In this document: positions 4,501 through 54,654 of the stretch, one piece after another | How positions within the stretch are numbered: the first letter of the stretch is position 1 | Layout: each line of letters starts with the position of its first letter | Assembly (NCBI GenBank): GCA_015062495.1 | Contig: SUUN01000001.1 | Coordinates: 97,069-161,068, forward strand | From: Alphaproteobacteria bacterium | GTDB lineage: Bacteria > Pseudomonadota > Alphaproteobacteria > Rs-D84 | Reading direction: 5' to 3' | DNA length: 64,000 bases | The notes under the pieces: model-generated | The model's database searches: none | The model's input: only the letters and a program-made list of their open reading frames with translations | Told to the model about the DNA's origin: nothing | Made by a program: the position numbers and the translations under genes

Positions 4501-5412
4501 ATGTTTAGTGATAATCAAATTTTTGCTGCGCCATTGGCTGGGATTACAGACCGGCCGTTTCGACGCGTCATTCGTGAATTTTCCCCAAATGCGCCGATTG
4601 TGACGGAAATGATTTCGTGTCATTCGTTGGTGGGGGCGCATAAAAATTGCCTGCGGAATTTCGATAACTATGCGGACGAAGGGAATGTTGGGGCGCAAAT
4701 CTTTGGCGCGGATGTGGGGTTAATGGCGGATGCAGCGCGAATTTTGGCAGATGCGGGGGCAAAATGGATTGATATAAATATGGGCTGCCCCGTGCCTAAG
4801 GTTGCGACACGCGCCGGCGCGGGGGCGCATTTAATGCGGGATCACGCGTTGGCGGGTAAAATTATGCGCGCTGTTGTGCGGGCGGTTGATATTCCGGTGT
4901 CAATTAAAACACGGCTGGGGTGGGATGATGATAATCGGGATTGGCGCGATTTGATTGATATTGCAGCAGATGCAGGCGTGCGATTTGCTGCATTGCATGG
5001 GCGGACGCGGGCGCAGTTATATCTGGGGAATGCGGTTCATCCAGATGTGTCGGATGCGCCGATTCCAATTATCGCAAATGGTGATATTAAAACTGCAGAT
5101 GATGTTAATGCGGTTCAGAAATTGGGCTATGCGGGGGTGATGATTGGGCGCGGATTATTGGGACGTCCGTGGGCGTTGGCGGAAATTGCCGGTGGTGCGC
5201 CAACATACAATGTTGGGGATGTTGCGTTGCGACATCTGGAATATGCGATTGAATACTATGGCGAAAAAACAGCAATCCCAATGTTTAGAAAACACGCCGC
5301 GTGGTACAGCGCAGGTATGCCGAATTCGTCGGATTTTCGTATCAGGGTTAACAGAATGGATAGTGCGGATGCGTTAAAGGTTGCAATTCGTGAATTTTGG
5401 GGTATCATTTAG
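4501..5412 (+). CDS. tRNA-dihydrouridine synthase (Dus family)
   Basis: N-terminal LAPLAGITD.PFR, FGAD.., catalytic-region NMGCP.PKV, C-terminal helical domain; 303 aa. Confidence 0.85.
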   Translation: MFSDNQIFAAPLAGITDRPFRRVIREFSPNAPIVTEMISCHSLVGAHKNCLRNFDNYADEGNVGAQIFGADVGLMADAARILADAGAKWIDINMGCPVPKVATRAGAGAHLMRDHALAGKIMRAVVRAVDIPVSIKTRLGWDDDNRDWRDLIDIAADAGVRFAALHGRTRAQLYLGNAVHPDVSDAPIPIIANGDIKTADDVNAVQKLGYAGVMIGRGLLGRPWALAEIAGGAPTYNVGDVALRHLEYAIEYYGEKTAIPMFRKHAAWYSAGMPNSSDFRIRVNRMDSADALKVAIREFWGII

Positions 5413-12121: not shown

Positions 12122-13063
12122 ATGATAAAAAACACTGACACTTTGATTAATGATATAAATGCGCCACGTGTGCATCACCGTGCCTTGACGGGGTATTTGC
12201 GGCGCAATTGGTCACGCAATCCGAATGAGTTAAAGCGAATTGTTTATAATACAGATGTGTCACAATATCTGGGGGCGTTGCCACCACAGTTGCGGGCGCG
12301 TGTTCCGCGGGAACAGATTGCGACCGTTACAGCACAGTTTCGCGACAAACTGGAAAACTTTTTAATCGACAATATTGTTGATTTGCGGGCAATGGAAACA
12401 GATCGGGTTTATGATTTGTCGGAAATTGGCGATTTGTTTGGCACGCAGTGTAGTCTGGTGGCGCGCGGTATTAATGTATATGGGGTAAATCCGTGGTCGG
12501 GGTTGTTGGGGTTTGTGTGCAAAATGTCGTTCCCGGAAATTGGCGCGCATTATGCGTTGAAACTGTATTATAACCATATTCCAGAAGTTACGCATTATAG
12601 CCACGGTCCGTGGTTTGAAGTTGCGACCGCATTGGCCACTAACAAGGCTGAGCCGCATGATAACGTGCCAATGTATATGGCATCCCTGCGGTACGAGAAA
12701 TATTTGCTTAGTCAATGGGCCGGTGACAGGGATGATGGTGTGCCGCAACGCGATAATAAATTTAAGGTCTTTTGTACGCGTACTGATGAAGACGAGTCCA
12801 GAAATCGTCGTGGTGGGCGTCGAATTGACTGGGGCGAAACATATATGACAAATTATGGTGGTTTGTCGTATCATGGGCGTAAAATATACCGCCAGGCACT
12901 GAATATGGACGAAGTAGGGCTGCGTAAATCAATTGTACGTGCGCGTAATAATTTTGAAAAACGTGACGTGGCGAATGCATTGGAACTGGCCGGGTTGATT
13001 GCGTGGTATGATGATAATCAGCCGTTATCCCAGTTCCTGTATCGCGTTCAAAATCAACGCTAG
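12122..13063 (+). CDS. Hypothetical protein
   Basis: Long ORF (track start 12104); a TTGACA-N16-TATATT promoter-like site at 12087-12116 suggests the ATG at 12122 (MIKNTD) is the start; no motifs recognised. Confidence 0.45.
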   Translation: MIKNTDTLINDINAPRVHHRALTGYLRRNWSRNPNELKRIVYNTDVSQYLGALPPQLRARVPREQIATVTAQFRDKLENFLIDNIVDLRAMETDRVYDLSEIGDLFGTQCSLVARGINVYGVNPWSGLLGFVCKMSFPEIGAHYALKLYYNHIPEVTHYSHGPWFEVATALATNKAEPHDNVPMYMASLRYEKYLLSQWAGDRDDGVPQRDNKFKVFCTRTDEDESRNRRGGRRIDWGETYMTNYGGLSYHGRKIYRQALNMDEVGLRKSIVRARNNFEKRDVANALELAGLIAWYDDNQPLSQFLYRVQNQR

Positions 13064-14994: not shown

Positions 14995-15197
14995 GAAAAT
15001 TCAAACCGTCGCATTTGCGGCGGTTTTAATTTTCTGTTTGGAACGCGTGGATTCGAACGACAAAATTCTTTTGTCGGGTTCGAATGTTACCCTCGTCCGT
15101 CGCATAAATGCGCCGCGACTGCGGGGCATTCGTGACGATTTCGCTGTGCTTTGCGTGCAAAATCTACTCATTGTCTCCCCGAGGCATGAGATAAACA

Positions 15198-15228
15198 AAA
15201 ATACCGCAGTTAGTGCGGTATTTTTATT
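15198..15228. terminator. Bidirectional rho-independent terminator (serves rnhA on the minus strand)
   Basis: ATACCGCA-gtta-GTGCGGTAT flanked by A- and T-runs on both sides. Confidence 0.6.
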
Positions 15229-15652
15229 TTAAACTTTCGGCGGCGGTGCGTGCCAATGTGTCAACGCGTTCGTTCATTTCATCGCCGTTGTGGCCGCGTA
15301 CCCAAAACCAATGGATTTTCTTGGTCGATGCCAATTCGTCCAGTTTTTGCCACAGTTCTTGGTTTTTGACCGGTTTTTTGTCCGCAGTGCGCCAATTGTT
15401 TTTCTTCCAATTTTTTATCCATGATTGCATGCCGTTTTTTACATACTGGCTGTCGGTGTGGATTTCCAGTTCGTCGTGTCGGCGCGCCGCCGTCAATGCG
15501 CAAATCACCGCCATTAATTCCATGCGATTGTTTGTTGTGTTATGTTCGCCACCACTGCGTTCGGCGGTGTGTGTGCCGTCGGTCGCAACAAATCCCCAAC
15601 CGCCGGGGCCTGGGTTGCCCAGGCAAGAGCCATCAGTCCAAATTTTTAGCAT
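15224..15652 (-). CDS. rnhA: Ribonuclease HI
   Basis: MLKIWTDGSCLGNPGPGGWG...ELMA...HTDSQY...W..RGH.G...NERVD; the track ORF has a spurious N-terminal extension, start set at the MLKIW ATG. Confidence 0.9.
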   Translation of the reverse strand: MLKIWTDGSCLGNPGPGGWGFVATDGTHTAERSGGEHNTTNNRMELMAVICALTAARRHDELEIHTDSQYVKNGMQSWIKNWKKNNWRTADKKPVKNQELWQKLDELASTKKIHWFWVRGHNGDEMNERVDTLARTAAESLK

Positions 15653-50676: not shown

Positions 50677-51831
50677 ATGTCAAAACAGAATAAAAACAAT
50701 AATATGGGAAAAACAAAACGTTCCACAGATGATTTGATTAATGATGCAATTGCCCAACAAAATGATTGGCAGGAAAATCGTCGTGAATATACGCGTGGAT
50801 TTTTGAAGTCGCTGAATATGTTTGCGCGTCCGTCGGTCAAAAAACAGGAAAATCAATCTGTGGCCGCCGCTGATGCAGGGATGGCGCGCAGTCGCCACAG
50901 CGCATTACGTGCGTATTGGTTTCCGATTGCCTGTGCCATGGTGGTGATATTTATTGCGGTGTGGGTTATGTTTATTCGTGGTGCAACGCAACCGCGTGTT
51001 ATTGTTGTGCCCGCTGTGCCAGAGCCAGTTGTGCAACGTGTTGATAATATAACAGTGCCGACGTTTGATATTGTTCGAATTGAAAAAGATGGTGATGTCG
51101 TTATTGCGGGACGCTGGTTGCCACATCAGAATATTTCAATCATGGTAAATAACAAGATTGTTGCAACAGAACGTACAGATTATGCGGGCGAGTTTGTGTA
51201 TACGACCTCAACTGCGTGGAAGCCGGGTAATTATACCATTGCTTTGTTGGGCGCAGAACCAGAAGTAAAATCGTCAGACAAGGTGTTCGTTTATATTTCA
51301 GATGCAGGTGTGGAAAATTCTGTGTCTTTGTTGATGACCAAAGAAGGCAGTACTTTATTACAGGCGCCGGCAATGTTGCGCGATGGTGACTTGGCAGTAT
51401 CCAAGATTGATTATTTAGATACGGGTCGCATTGTTGTGTCGGGTGATGGGTTGCCACGTTTGCGCGTGTCGTTGGCGTTAAATGGTGATTATATGGGCTT
51501 TGCCCGTGTGTCAGATCACAGACATTTTGGTCTGGGGGCGGATGTCGGCGAACTGGAAAGCGGCAAGGAATATGAGTTGGCCGTGCGTATGCATGATGGT
51601 GATGGGCGTACAATCGGGACAGTGCTACATAAATTTGTTATGCCAGAAATGACAGGCGATGATGATACATACTATACTGTCCGTCGCGGGGATTGCTTGT
51701 GGATTATTGCACGTAATTTCTTGCGCCGTGGGGTGTTGTTCAGTGTTATTGCAGAACGCAATGCAATACAAAATCCTGATTTGATTTATCCAAAACAGTT
51801 GTTGCAAATTCCAACATCGGGCAAGCATTAA
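50677..51831 (+). CDS. LysM-domain membrane protein
   Basis: TM at ~aa 85-105; C-terminal YTVRRGDCLWIIARNF....SVIAERNAIQNPDLIYPKQLLQIP is a LysM motif. Confidence 0.6.
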   Translation: MSKQNKNNNMGKTKRSTDDLINDAIAQQNDWQENRREYTRGFLKSLNMFARPSVKKQENQSVAAADAGMARSRHSALRAYWFPIACAMVVIFIAVWVMFIRGATQPRVIVVPAVPEPVVQRVDNITVPTFDIVRIEKDGDVVIAGRWLPHQNISIMVNNKIVATERTDYAGEFVYTTSTAWKPGNYTIALLGAEPEVKSSDKVFVYISDAGVENSVSLLMTKEGSTLLQAPAMLRDGDLAVSKIDYLDTGRIVVSGDGLPRLRVSLALNGDYMGFARVSDHRHFGLGADVGELESGKEYELAVRMHDGDGRTIGTVLHKFVMPEMTGDDDTYYTVRRGDCLWIIARNFLRRGVLFSVIAERNAIQNPDLIYPKQLLQIPTSGKH

Positions 51832-52670
51832 TGAACGGCAATCATAATAAAATTAGTTTCGCAATAAAAAACACCAATTGGTGTAATTTGAAATGTGCAC
51901 ATTGCAGCGAGTGCAGCGGGCCACACGTTGCGCCAAATATCATGCCATTGGACAAGGTTGAACAATATATTGGCGAGTTCTGCGCGATGCCGTTGCCAAA
52001 GTGGGAATACATGGTGTTTACAGGTGGCGAAACAATGGCGCCCTATTTTATGAAACAGTATGAATATATACCGCAGTGTCTGGAAATCGCGGGACGCGCA
52101 GGTTTGGCACCGTTTATTAAAACAAATGGTGTGTGGGGAACGGACGATGCGTTGCGTCGTCGTATATTAAACGACTGTGCGAATGCGGCGATAAAAAATA
52201 ATACAATGACATCAATGGATGTGTCTATTGATGAATTTCATAACACTGTTCCAGCGGTGGCGCGTATTATCCAGGAAATTGTTAGCAGTGAACATTTGGC
52301 GCGTTGTGTGCGGGTGTCGATTTCAGGATTAGATACATTGAAATCACATGCGCAGTTTAATTATCTGATTGCATATCTAAAAGCGCACAATATTCATGTG
52401 TTCCCGTCGGGCAATACGTTTATTGCGGCACGTGAAACGATTGGGACCAAGATTTTGTTCGATTTTGGGACGCCTGTGTCACAGATGGGGCGCGCAAAAC
52501 AAAATAATATTGGTGAAGTGCGGCCGGATGGTTCGTCAGATGCGGTTTGGGGAAACTGTTTGCAGATAGATAATGAAGATGTCGCGACGCTGAACTATTT
52601 TCATAAAACGCCGGTGAATGGACGAACCGTCTATGATGTGACCCAGGAATTATTACTAAGGACCAGATAA
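51831..52670 (+). CDS. Radical SAM domain protein (function unknown)
   Basis: CNLKCAHC (Cx3Cx2C) and FTGGE SAM-binding motif; 279 aa; start overlaps the upstream stop. Confidence 0.55.
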   Translation: MNGNHNKISFAIKNTNWCNLKCAHCSECSGPHVAPNIMPLDKVEQYIGEFCAMPLPKWEYMVFTGGETMAPYFMKQYEYIPQCLEIAGRAGLAPFIKTNGVWGTDDALRRRILNDCANAAIKNNTMTSMDVSIDEFHNTVPAVARIIQEIVSSEHLARCVRVSISGLDTLKSHAQFNYLIAYLKAHNIHVFPSGNTFIAARETIGTKILFDFGTPVSQMGRAKQNNIGEVRPDGSSDAVWGNCLQIDNEDVATLNYFHKTPVNGRTVYDVTQELLLRTR

Positions 52671-52671
52671 A

Positions 52672-53484
52672 ATGTCAAAAAGAATACCGGATGAAGAACT
52701 GACGCCGGCGCAGTTAGCGAAACGCGAACGTCGCAGACTGTATCGCGAAAAAAATCGCGAAAAAATCGCCGCGCAAAAACGTGAATATTATTTGCGTAAT
52801 ATTGATAAGTTTAAGCAGCGCGCACGGAAACAAATGGCAACTATGACGCCAGAAGAACGCGGCGTCAAGGACGCAAAGTATCGCGCAAAAAAACGCGAGC
52901 AAATTCGGGCGCGCAAACGTCAGTACTATGTGGCTCATGCCGATGCGTACAAGGAACGCGCAAAACGTTATTATCATAGCCTGACGGCGGAACAGAGAAT
53001 GGATTTGGCACGTGCCAGAAAGCCCAGCCGTATAGCGTGGCGCGAAAGGAATCGTGAACATTTGGCGGATAAACGGCAACAGTATTATGCGGAAAATAAA
53101 GAACGTCTGAAAACGGTTGTTCAGCGGTATTATAAAGAACATGTGGAAGTTTTATCTGAAAAACGGGCGGTGGCGTATACGGAAAAAGTAAACGCGCGAC
53201 AGATGTGCCCGGCGTTCAGATTTGTTGAATATCTGCGATTGAAAGAAAATGCGCGGTTTGTTGTTGTGTATAAGCCGCATATGAATTTGGCGCATTTGGC
53301 GGCAAAAACATGCACGGCAATTCAACAGGCGGATTATAAATTGTGTCCGATTTGCAGAAATGCTAGAATTGCAAAGGATAAAATGGTGGCGGCCTGCCCT
53401 ATGCCCCGGGTGTTTGAATTTGATGATGCAGTACAGCAAATTCGTAGATTCGCAAAACAGATTGTCGCAGAAAATAAAAGATAA
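52672..53484 (+). CDS. Basic tandem-repeat protein (R/K-E-x-YY-x-x-N-K/R-E repeats) with C-terminal Cys cluster
   Basis: Six to seven ~27-30-aa repeats of ...RE.YY..N.E...; C-terminal C.....CP.C......C; 2-nt gap from the upstream gene. Confidence 0.5.
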   Translation: MSKRIPDEELTPAQLAKRERRRLYREKNREKIAAQKREYYLRNIDKFKQRARKQMATMTPEERGVKDAKYRAKKREQIRARKRQYYVAHADAYKERAKRYYHSLTAEQRMDLARARKPSRIAWRERNREHLADKRQQYYAENKERLKTVVQRYYKEHVEVLSEKRAVAYTEKVNARQMCPAFRFVEYLRLKENARFVVVYKPHMNLAHLAAKTCTAIQQADYKLCPICRNARIAKDKMVAACPMPRVFEFDDAVQQIRRFAKQIVAENKR

Positions 53485-53538
53485 AAATCGTTCTGGACAT
53501 GGGGGGATTTTTAGTATATTATTTGCCCTGTTCCGACT

Positions 53539-53612
53539 GCGGGCGTGGTATAATGGTAGCACGTCAGCTTCCCAAGCTGAAGACGAGGGTTCGATTCCCT
53601 TCGCCCGCACCA
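53539..53612 (+). tRNA. tRNA-Gly, anticodon CCC
   Basis: Acceptor GCGGGCG/CGCCCGC, anticodon arm TCAGC-TTCCCAA-GCTGA (anticodon CCC), T-loop GTTCGATTC, 3' ACCA. Confidence 0.85.
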
Positions 53613-53956
53613 CGCTTGTCTTTTGGTTTGTTTGAATCGGGTATTCTCTCTTCTTCGTCTAAAACTCGTTGCTAATAACGCAACTCGTTAAGACTGCGAT
53701 ACGTTTGGATTCCCTTCGCCCGCACCAAGTTTAAAGTTGGTTGTGTTTGAGTCGGGTATCCTTGTGACGCACACATCAATTCGTTGCTAATAACGCAACT
53801 CATTGTGTGTTTATACACGCGGATTCCCTTCGCCCGCACCAAGATTGTCTTTTGGTTTGTATGAATCGGGTATCCTCTCTTCTTCGTCTAAAACTCGTTG
53901 CTAATAACGCAACTCGTTAAGACTGCGATACGTTTGGATTCCCTTCGCCCGCACCA
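53592..53956. repeat. Tandem array: 21-nt tRNA-Gly 3' end (GGATTCCCTTCGCCCGCACCA) repeated at 53707, 53821 and 53936 with ~94-nt spacers (period 114-115 bp)
   Basis: Spacers 1 and 3 nearly identical, spacer 2 diverged; each contains TCGTTGCTAATAACGCAACTCGTT-like palindromic segment. Confidence 0.8.
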
Positions 53957-54028
53957 TCCGCTTTCTCTGACGCTACAGCGAGATTGGGGGGTATCCGCTT
54001 TCGCTGACGCTACAGCGAGATTGGGGTT
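53957..54028. repeat. 35-bp direct tandem duplication (TATCCGCTTTC.CTGACGCTACAGCGAGATTGGGG x2)
   Basis: Two adjacent near-identical copies. Confidence 0.7.
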
Positions 54029-54048
54029 GTAATTATTTGAATAAATAT

Positions 54049-54077
54049 TTGACTTTTGATTAGTTTTGGTTCATAAT
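54049..54077 (+). promoter_or_regulatory. Putative sigma70 promoter of the rpsP operon (TTGACT-N17-CATAAT)
   Basis: Consensus-like hexamers with 17-nt spacer ~140 nt upstream of rpsP. Confidence 0.45.
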
Positions 54078-54216
54078 AGGTGCGCAAATCCCAAAGATTG
54101 CCATTATTGTATCGCCAGTTCGCAGTATGCGTGTGGTACATCATCCGACGAGTGTTCGTCCTTGATGGCGGTTTTCTTTGTGGAAAAAACAGTTAATAAA
54201 TATAAGGAGCAAAATT

Positions 54217-54654
54217 ATGGCAACTGTTATTCGTTTGGCACGTTTCGGTGCGAAAAAACGCCCATATTATCACATTGTTGTGACAGATTCACGCAATGCA
54301 CGTAATTCGGGTAATGTATTGGAAGTCGTTGGTAAATATGACCCAATGCAGGCAAAAGATAGCGATAAACGCGTTATCTTGAAATTGGATGAAGTTAAGG
54401 CATGGTTGGCCAAAGGGGCACAGCCATCTGATCGTGTTTACAAGTTCTTGGCCAAAGCCGGCTTGGTAAAACCAAAGGCGATTCCAGTTCAGACCAAAAA
54501 ACATTTGCAGTCTGAAAAAACACAGATGAAAATCAAGGACAAAGCCGACAAGTTGGCAAAAATTGCCGCCGAAAAAGCAGCGGCAGAAGCCGCAGCCAAG
54601 GCTGCAGCAGAAGCGCCAGCCGAAGAAGCACCAGCAACAGAAACAGCTGAATAA
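54217..54654 (+). CDS. rpsP: 30S ribosomal protein S16 (with Lys/Ala-rich C-terminal extension)
   Basis: MATVIRLARFGAKKRPYYHIVV.DSR..R.G...E..G.YDP; AAGGAG RBS. Confidence 0.9.
   Translation: MATVIRLARFGAKKRPYYHIVVTDSRNARNSGNVLEVVGKYDPMQAKDSDKRVILKLDEVKAWLAKGAQPSDRVYKFLAKAGLVKPKAIPVQTKKHLQSEKTQMKIKDKADKLAKIAAEKAAAEAAAKAAAEAPAEEAPATETAE

Follow-up and report, generated by a model that had tools for sequence, protein, structure and literature searches.

Background

In the 64-kb stretch of alphaproteobacterial DNA analysed here (64,000 nucleotides, hereafter the window), a tRNA-Gly(CCC) gene upstream of rpsP is followed by three further copies of its own 3' end, which raises the question of what these copies are and what the sequences between them represent. 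The repeated part, 17-20 nt from the end of the T-loop to the CCA, is the segment typically duplicated by integrases that target tRNA genes, and the first-pass annotation of the window had read the array as a series of attachment-site (att) scars. A second point of reference is provided by the RtT repeats of Escherichia coli, an isolated curiosity since the late 1970s whose origin and role are unclear, and for which tandem duplication is the classical explanation; to our knowledge they occur only at tRNA-Tyr. The rttR gene is annotated as a small RNA and is reported to stem from one repeat unit of the tyrT operon (PMC3318445), and a passage of a recent preprint that cites Bosl & Kersten 1991 mentions its involvement in tyrT transcript processing and possibly in the stringent response (bioRxiv 10.1101/2024.07.17.603846). 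Likewise, cis-mobilizable elements (CIMEs) and their tandem accretion at tRNA att sites are a described concept (PMC5704250).

The explanation we favour, at roughly even odds (probability about 0.5), is that the array consists of three head-to-tail non-coding hairpin modules of ~95 nt (sub-types A, B and A), each closed by the 20-nt end of tRNA-Gly(CCC), and that these modules are non-autonomous, selfish or neutral passengers of tRNA transcription units, similar in kind to RtT. In the following we describe the array and its variation among strains, its relatives behind other tRNA genes and its predicted structure, and weigh the competing explanations where the evidence bears on them.

Results and Discussion

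Layout of the array

The coordinates of all features are collected in Table 1. Behind the single tRNA gene, the repeat GGATTCCCTTCGCCCGCACCA begins at 53707, 53821 and 53936, as the first-pass annotation had stated, and its last 20 nt are the end of tRNA-Gly(CCC) (53593-53612). Every unit is closed by this GATTCCCTTCGCCCGCACCA, which spans the end of the T-loop, the 3' strands of T-stem and acceptor, and the CCA; the 17-mer core of the tRNA end is present in four copies on the + strand, with none other within 2 kb. Tandem Repeats Finder (TRF) reports a period of 115 with 3.2 copies (53593-53956, score 381), in line with the period first proposed, although the individual units measure 115, 114 and 115 bp. 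Units 1 and 3 share 97% identity over the 135-nt reference copy including the flanking tRNA-end copies, and unit 2 shares 61% with unit 1, so that the earlier description of two near-identical spacers and a diverged middle one was accurate. The sequence TCGTTGCTAATAACGCAACTC is exact in all three units (3 occurrences in 64 kb versus 0 expected). By contrast, the tandem duplication that trails the array, first given as 35 bp, has a period of 37 bp (53956-54026, 1.9 copies, 97%).

Table 1. Positions of the tRNA-Gly(CCC) gene, the hairpin modules and the adjoining features in the window
Feature	Position	Strand	Remarks
Sigma-70-like tRNA promoter, predicted	53494-53522	+	TGGACA-17-TATTAT
tRNA-Gly(CCC)	53539-53612	+	ARAGORN; Rfam tRNA model, 67.6 bits
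Copied segment	53593-53612	+	last 20 nt of tRNA-Gly(CCC), T-loop GATT to CCA
Module 1	53613-53727	+	sub-type A, 115 nt
Module 1, left arm	53613-53631		
Module 1, core	53632-53713		87.2 bits
Module 1, apex hairpin	53666-53686		
Module 1, tRNA-end copy	53708-53727		
Module 2	53728-53841	+	sub-type B, 114 nt
Module 2, core	53747-53827		98.9 bits
Module 2, apex	53781-53801		
Module 2, tRNA-end copy	53822-53841		
Module 3	53842-53956	+	sub-type A, 115 nt; 97% identical to module 1
Module 3, core	53861-53942		90.5 bits
Module 3, apex	53895-53915		
Module 3, tRNA-end copy	53937-53956		
37-bp hairpin element, two copies	53957-54030	+	TCCGCTTTCGCTG-ACGCTA-CAGCGAGATTGGGG
rpsP promoter-like site	54049-54077	+	TTGACT-17-CATAAT; downstream limit of the array
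rpsP	54217-54654		

The spacers between the tRNA-end copies (94-95 nt) are non-coding, with no coding capacity found, and both ARAGORN and the Rfam tRNA model see one tRNA only in the array; over the same region, Rfam at permissive thresholds returned tRNA matches only. The -35 box CTGGAC(A/T) is kept 5' of tRNA-Gly(CCC) in most relatives, and no terminator-like site was found between this tRNA gene and the rpsP promoter.

With regard to the neighbouring genes, the suggestion that a trio upstream of the tRNA (LysM protein, radical SAM, KxYY-repeat protein) is the residue of a lost element finds no support: all three genes are located on the 5' side of the tRNA, and the radical-SAM and KxYY-like genes occupy the same position in the related species L002. 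A LysM gene followed by radical-SAM and KxYY-repeat Cys-rich protein genes is found in both species (window 50677-53484; L002 1766-3231), while a 270-aa gene is missing in the strains L082 and L084, and the upstream genes of strain L086 differ in the sequence available. The first-pass annotation also noted that the array lies where ffh would normally adjoin rpsP. In the loci seen, the absence of ffh beside rpsP appears to be clade-wide rather than an effect of the array; relatives likewise have LysM as the next gene upstream, and a crude test for an SRP54 motif found none in the window. The 5' untranslated region of rpsP (54078-54216) is kept at the DNA level in relatives and includes a hairpin with a T-run (54156-54180), a candidate S16 leader or attenuator; this leader is duplicated in L005 and hosts one hairpin module in L086.

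Variation among strains

RpsP relatives place the window beside metagenome-assembled genomes named Candidatus Enterousia, i.e. gut Alphaproteobacteria, and independent assemblies were retrieved by exact protein sequence look-up. In one of these, an independent ENA assembly (L085), the three-unit A-B-A array is base-for-base identical to that of the window. The array of L081/L087 is also identical, this being probably the window's own contig, and L090 agrees base for base up to a contig end within the array. Among strains whose RpsP is identical, L084 and L086 have two units and L082 and L083 have none; in the last two, the CCA of the tRNA runs straight into the 37-bp element. In the first unit of L084 the left arm is of B type and the core of A type, so that this unit is regarded as recombinant.

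These comparisons bear on the possibility of an assembly artefact, i.e. mis-joined or collapsed repeats, which had been named at the outset as a finding that would overturn the att-scar reading. Several short contigs (L089-L092) end inside or just before the array, which shows that its repeats trouble short-read assemblers, so that copy numbers from short reads are to be taken with caution and may be under-counted. However, an artefact is hard to reconcile with the identity of the array in L085 (and in L090 up to the contig end), with the substitutions that distinguish the units, and with ordered 0-, 2- and 3-unit alleles that have clean junctions, and we consider its probability negligible. 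The identical array in an independent assembly and the strains with zero, two or three units thus demonstrate that the array is real, dynamic and polymorphic among strains of one species.

Relatives of the module behind other tRNA genes

A metagenome scan with the 17-nt apex palindrome as query returned mostly chance matches, which were sorted by an extended motif and by a covariance model (R1). About 20 metagenome contigs carry full homologues of the 115-nt unit, located 3' of at least four tRNA genes according to ARAGORN: Gly-CCC, Gly-UCC, Leu-UAG and Glu-CUC. In the Gly(UCC) context the module is followed by tRNA-Tyr, and the Glu(CUC) module is cut by the contig end. Full-length members score 82-102 bits against R1 and chance matches at most 26 bits; two members cut by contig ends, L115 and L193, score 60.4 and 41.8 bits, respectively. 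No further match to the model turned up in the window, where it returns the three copies of the array alone, in E. coli, or across 80 rpsP loci from alphaproteobacteria. These results speak against a dispersed repeat of the REP/REPIN type, for the 64 kb contain just the three copies of the array, and the loci of relatives show no others elsewhere.

In every tRNA context the module shares the strand of the tRNA, and its first base is the one behind the CCA or lies no more than ~2 nt from it. Whenever the contig includes the 3' end of the module, this end repeats the last 17-20 nt of the local tRNA (e.g. TCCCGCTGCCCGCACCA, TCCCTCTGCTCGCACCA and TCTCTTTACCCGCACCA); the terminal copy agrees exactly with the tRNA at hand in each case, including three variants of Gly-UCC as well as Leu-UAG. 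Cores behind different tRNAs are, by eye, ~80-90% identical, the left arm (the first ~25 nt) varies with the tRNA context, and the start of most units is an AG with an A/U-rich stretch behind it. The units of the array are members of a conserved family with a core of ~81 nt. The Gly(UCC) and Leu contigs have no genes in common with the window or its relatives, and an all-against-all comparison of open reading frames around the modules for a linked protein gene retrieved only spurious frames over the modules or adjacent tRNA genes.

Two further copies of the module are located at non-tRNA sites and are flanked by imperfect direct repeats of 16-18 nt. One is found in the rpsP leader of L086, at a site that is empty in the window and in other strains, and the other upstream of tpiA in L108, a contig of higher G+C. 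At 12270-12340, ~150 nt from its module, L108 contains another element that shares the foot boxes (GCGTATCC ... CTCGGATTCC) but has a different interior. A larger superfamily based on the foot boxes alone was rejected, as a search of 1.76 Mb yielded a single extra element, in L108.

Hairpin structure

For 23 aligned units, RNAalifold predicted a single long, interrupted hairpin with 18 pairs, and compensatory double changes are seen in ten of these. In the trimmed alignment used for the covariation statistics, paired cells amount to 96.3%, compared with 23-40% when partners are slid, and the covariation score of 0.400 (versus 0.164 in shuffles) was reached by none of 500. The apical 22 nt are nearly invariant, with an invariant 5-bp stem and with a 7-nt loop and flanks that are invariant or nearly so; the apex, rather than the termini, is the most conserved part of the module. 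The family thus displays what is expected of a structured single-stranded element, namely pairs that are held by compensatory changes.

As to the identity of the folded strand, G.U cells outnumber A.C cells in the alignment (11 versus 2), which favours the tRNA-sense strand. Sub-type A does not fold more stably than its shuffles (z = -0.39 and -1.40), and folding of the antisense strand is about equally favourable. Since folding energies separate neither strand, the folded species may be RNA or single-stranded DNA. Complementarity of the left arm to the tRNA-end copy is strong in Gly(UCC) contexts (-14 to -22 kcal/mol), moderate in Gly(CCC) and weak in Leu. When tRNA and module are folded together at equilibrium, the 5' acceptor strand of the tRNA is predicted to pair with the distal copy in five of six contexts, and this mispairing would be harmful unless folding is co-transcriptional. 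A role of the left arm as an insulator of the tRNA from the decoy copy was tried and rejected, for folding supports it in L102 only and elsewhere the wild type does no better than shuffled left arms.

Such conservation could mean that the modules are useful to the host, for example as trailer RNA, as a processing or insulator signal (e.g. for tRNA/rpsP separation) or as an RtT-like small RNA, and are kept by selection. The near-invariant 22-nt apex and stems that covary across species and tRNA contexts speak for this, as do the invariably sense orientation, the position of a module between the co-transcribed genes for tRNA-Gly(UCC) and tRNA-Tyr, and the lack, in the window species, of the terminator that follows tRNA-Gly(CCC) in relatives. 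Yet the module is dispensable within the species, as the 0-unit strains testify, it is absent behind the same tRNA in several related species (L002, L003, L004, L006-L010), and it also occurs at non-tRNA sites. We therefore hold a benefit to the host to be unlikely, though not so unlikely as to be set aside. Conservation of the array in relatives as an expressed non-coding RNA locus had initially been named as evidence that would count against att scars; conservation of an RNA-like hairpin locus is, in part, what the relatives display.

Other elements behind the same tRNA gene

In related species tRNA-Gly(CCC) lies near rpsP in either orientation. Together with its trailer modules it flips relative to rpsP among L002-L010 and L212, and these orientation changes across species point to repeated inversion or re-insertion of the tRNA segment. 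The 115-nt unit is found behind this tRNA in five species-level lineages (the window species, L005, L156, L177 and L212), of which L156, L177 and L212 are syntenic with the window. A different element of ~165 nt, termed here type I, occurs behind tRNA-Gly(CCC) in L002, L003, L005, L006, L008, L010 and L156. Behind the tRNA terminator it opens with an inverted, degenerate copy of the 3' half of the tRNA, and it closes with a direct copy of the tRNA 3' end; Rfam returned only tRNA matches for the type I elements of relatives. L156 chains a type I element and then a 115-nt unit (type II). A third kind is represented by L088, a strain of the window species in which the 37-bp element is closed by a tRNA-end copy and repeated at a 69-bp period; L083 retains a decayed version of it. 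Three unrelated module families with the same tRNA-end closure are thus present in the trailer of one tRNA-Gly(CCC).

Several further observations concern these elements. After the module behind tRNA-Leu in L172 and L191, TCCGTCTTTGC...GCAAAGCCGCGATTG resembles the 37-bp element of the window (TCCGCTTTCGCTG...CAGCGAGATTG), and the hairpin covaries between them, so that this may be a trailer motif shared with the window. An inverted apex hairpin of the module with a shortened loop lies within the first hairpin loop of type I elements on the minus strand of L002 (approximately 5095-5115, GAGTTGCG-TTA-GCAAC) and L008 (approximately 4905-4925, GAGTTGC-GCA-GCAACGAA). The region 4790-5112 of L005 is a complex rearrangement, in which the tRNA-end copy of a module has been fused to a piece of the 5' end of trmD. 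The same region joins a second copy of tRNA-Gly, which breaks off in the T-loop, to the 3' portion of a type I element, and this lineage has a duplicated rpsP promoter along with the duplicated leader. Finally, the window itself contains a type-I-like element behind the terminator of tRNA-Pro(TGG) (15038-15235), composed of an inverted T-arm copy (GGATTCGAAC), a hairpin, GGGTTCGAAT, ~110 nt, a degenerate 3'-end copy (TCTCCCCGAGGCA) and a terminator of its own. Rfam at permissive thresholds gave tRNA matches only for this tRNA-Pro trailer.

The type I elements provide a point in favour of local tandem duplication, according to which the tRNA or its 3' end was duplicated with its trailer and then decayed, leaving a pseudogene array and no element family: in L006 and L010 the duplicated type I segment takes in the terminator, and in L010 the element start as well. 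For the array, this explanation is contradicted by the occurrence of the same core behind unrelated tRNAs, by alignment scores between the units and tRNAs that, once the 3' copy is left aside, do not rise above shuffled controls (z mostly below 2), and by the detection of one tRNA only. An origin of the left arm and foot box from a tRNA pseudogene was also considered and discarded, their likeness to the acceptor and D-arm not exceeding shuffled controls. Local tandem duplication is largely refuted and, in our estimate, very improbable.

A more serious competitor holds that the modules are integrase footprints, i.e. minimal att-bearing remnants (CIMEs) that were left behind, or are still moved in trans, by tyrosine integrases aimed at tRNA 3' ends and were stacked by accretion, a concept with precedent (PMC5704250). 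The copied segment is the one that tRNA-targeting integrases typically duplicate, and the array contains four direct repeats of the 20-nt end of tRNA-Gly(CCC). Type I and type II modules are chained at one tRNA in L156, and, like secondary att sites, the two non-tRNA sites have direct repeats that match imperfectly. Furthermore, truncated DUF6538-type integrase N-termini lie behind homologous terminator sequences, 3' of tRNA-Gly(CCC) in L004 (1-450) and of tRNA-Gly(GCC) in the pig-gut contig L213 (5001-5318); database homologues of this N-terminus are all short fragments, with no full-length gene among them. These integrase remnants are unrelated to the modules, and the one in L004 gives no match to R1. 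No integrase gene or fragment is located in or beside the array, and 94 nt are too short to encode one. An att site carried by an element would not match each local tRNA exactly, as the terminal copy does, and the covariation indicates selection for the hairpin rather than decay. Moreover, the 20-nt core and the apex were found in zero viral contigs, and no similarity was detected in phage or plasmid collections; a phage, plasmid or viral origin was rejected for this lack of matches to the unit, core and apex.

Integrase footprints are, on this balance, an unlikely explanation that keeps some weight. What persists of the att-scar reading are the tRNA 3'-end copies and a recombinationally active locus, as witnessed by zero, two or three copies, the flipped orientation of the tRNA and the truncated integrase N-termini in relatives; its other half is not supported, because the spacers constitute a conserved, covarying hairpin family and not decayed scars.

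Comparison with known repeat systems

The closest counterpart in layout is RtT. In the tyrT-tyrV-rttR region of E. coli K-12 (NC_000913), units of 178 nt start right after the CCA of tRNA-Tyr and close with AATCCTTCCCCCACCACCA, the last 19 nt of this tRNA; three copies lie behind tyrV and one between tyrT and tyrV, and in the minimum-energy fold an internal GGGGAAGGAT pairs with the terminal tRNA-end copy. The modules resemble RtT in that they follow the CCA, run in tRNA sense, occur in tandem, end in a copy from T-loop to CCA and contain an internal segment that pairs with this copy. They differ in showing neither sequence nor structure homology to RtT: the RtT model RF00391 gave no match at E <= 10 in the window between 52500 and 55000, while the positive control in E. 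coli yielded 4 matches of 133-137 bits. In addition, the module is shorter (115 versus 178 nt) and without a tpr-like ORF, it consists of a single long hairpin with an invariant apex, and its family is found at at least four tRNA genes as well as at non-tRNA sites. The module family is previously undescribed, and analogous to RtT rather than homologous with it.

With CIMEs the modules have in common the lack of integration genes, direct repeats of the tRNA 3' end, head-to-tail stacking and the chaining of unrelated elements. However, CIMEs are decayed ICEs/IMEs on the kilobase scale, whereas the modules measure ~95 nt, are conserved in size and structure, covary, and carry a terminal copy that matches each local tRNA. 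MITEs and REPINs are similarly short and non-coding, and share with the modules a hairpin with compensatory substitutions, flanking direct repeats and sub-families. Here the differences lie in the direct repeat, which at 16-20 bp is very long for a target-site duplication (17-20 nt at tRNAs, 16-18 nt and imperfect at the two non-tRNA sites; empty sites are seen at tRNA-Gly(CCC) and the rpsP leader only), in the fixed orientation and exact position relative to the CCA, and in the apex as the most conserved part. The modules are, moreover, confined to one locus of the window rather than dispersed over its 64 kb, and neither a parent transposon nor a RAYT gene was found. Their inverted repeats are confined to short foot boxes (GGGTATCC / GGATTCCC), and no parent element was seen for them.

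Integron attC sites and the attP hairpin of CTX phage are folded single-strand recombination sites, and casposons insert at tRNA 3' ends. In anatomy alone, the modules recall these systems by an imperfect hairpin, a foot that mimics the target duplex, tandem arrays and a duplicated tRNA 3' segment. They differ from attC and casposons by the absence of cargo and of a recombinase or casposase nearby, and integron-type foot motifs were not evident by eye.

Proposed mechanism

If the modules are passengers of tRNA transcription units, as we favour, they would be co-transcribed with the tRNA from its promoter, since no terminator intervenes, and each transcribed module would fold into a hairpin. 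Because the 3' end of a module looks like that of a tRNA (...ACCA, with AG and the A/U-rich stretch usually next, a start that we take to resemble an RNase E site), the enzymes of tRNA 3'-end maturation could cut after each CCA and release the tRNA along with module RNAs of ~115 nt, by analogy with RtT. Slippage or unequal recombination would find ideal substrates in identical copies of 17-20 bp on either side of a hairpin, and in this way modules would be added, deleted and reshuffled and their copy number shifted.

The module family is probably both non-autonomous and mobile, and its spread to new tRNA genes would depend on machinery supplied in trans. Candidates are a tRNA-specific recombinase with the hairpin as its site of action, or a mode of insertion in which ~17 bp of the target are duplicated. 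Insertion with target duplication accounts for the match of both copies to the local tRNA and for the similar repeat length at non-tRNA sites, but fails to account for the complementarity of the left arm to the local tRNA end. Site-specific recombination, in turn, accounts for the position of the modules and the chaining of different ones, but fails to account for a terminal copy that always matches the local tRNA.

It is also conceivable, if quite improbable in our view, that the modules, RtT and other units closed by tRNA ends together form an unrecognised class of mobile hairpin elements specific to tRNA 3' ends, the insertion of which depends on the mature tRNA end. The segment of ~18 nt from the T-loop to the CCA is the partner of retroelement primer-binding sites. 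Elements of such a class might move by an RNA- or single-strand-mediated copy-and-paste, in which every insertion would make a new copy of this segment, while the left arm, being complementary to it, could serve as a guide that pairs with the target.

Conclusions

A family with the layout of RtT, and non-homologous to it, has now been found in gut alphaproteobacteria. It adds to the RtT picture many independent contexts (four tRNAs and two other sites), a structure defined by covariation, and presence or absence within a species. For annotators, it follows that tandem copies of a tRNA 3' end are not always att scars of lost islands. The covariance model R1 is suited to a genome-wide census, and empty and filled sites can be compared. 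Why the trailers of tRNA genes gather modules that are closed by tRNA ends, and how such modules move, has thereby become a general question that is open to testing.
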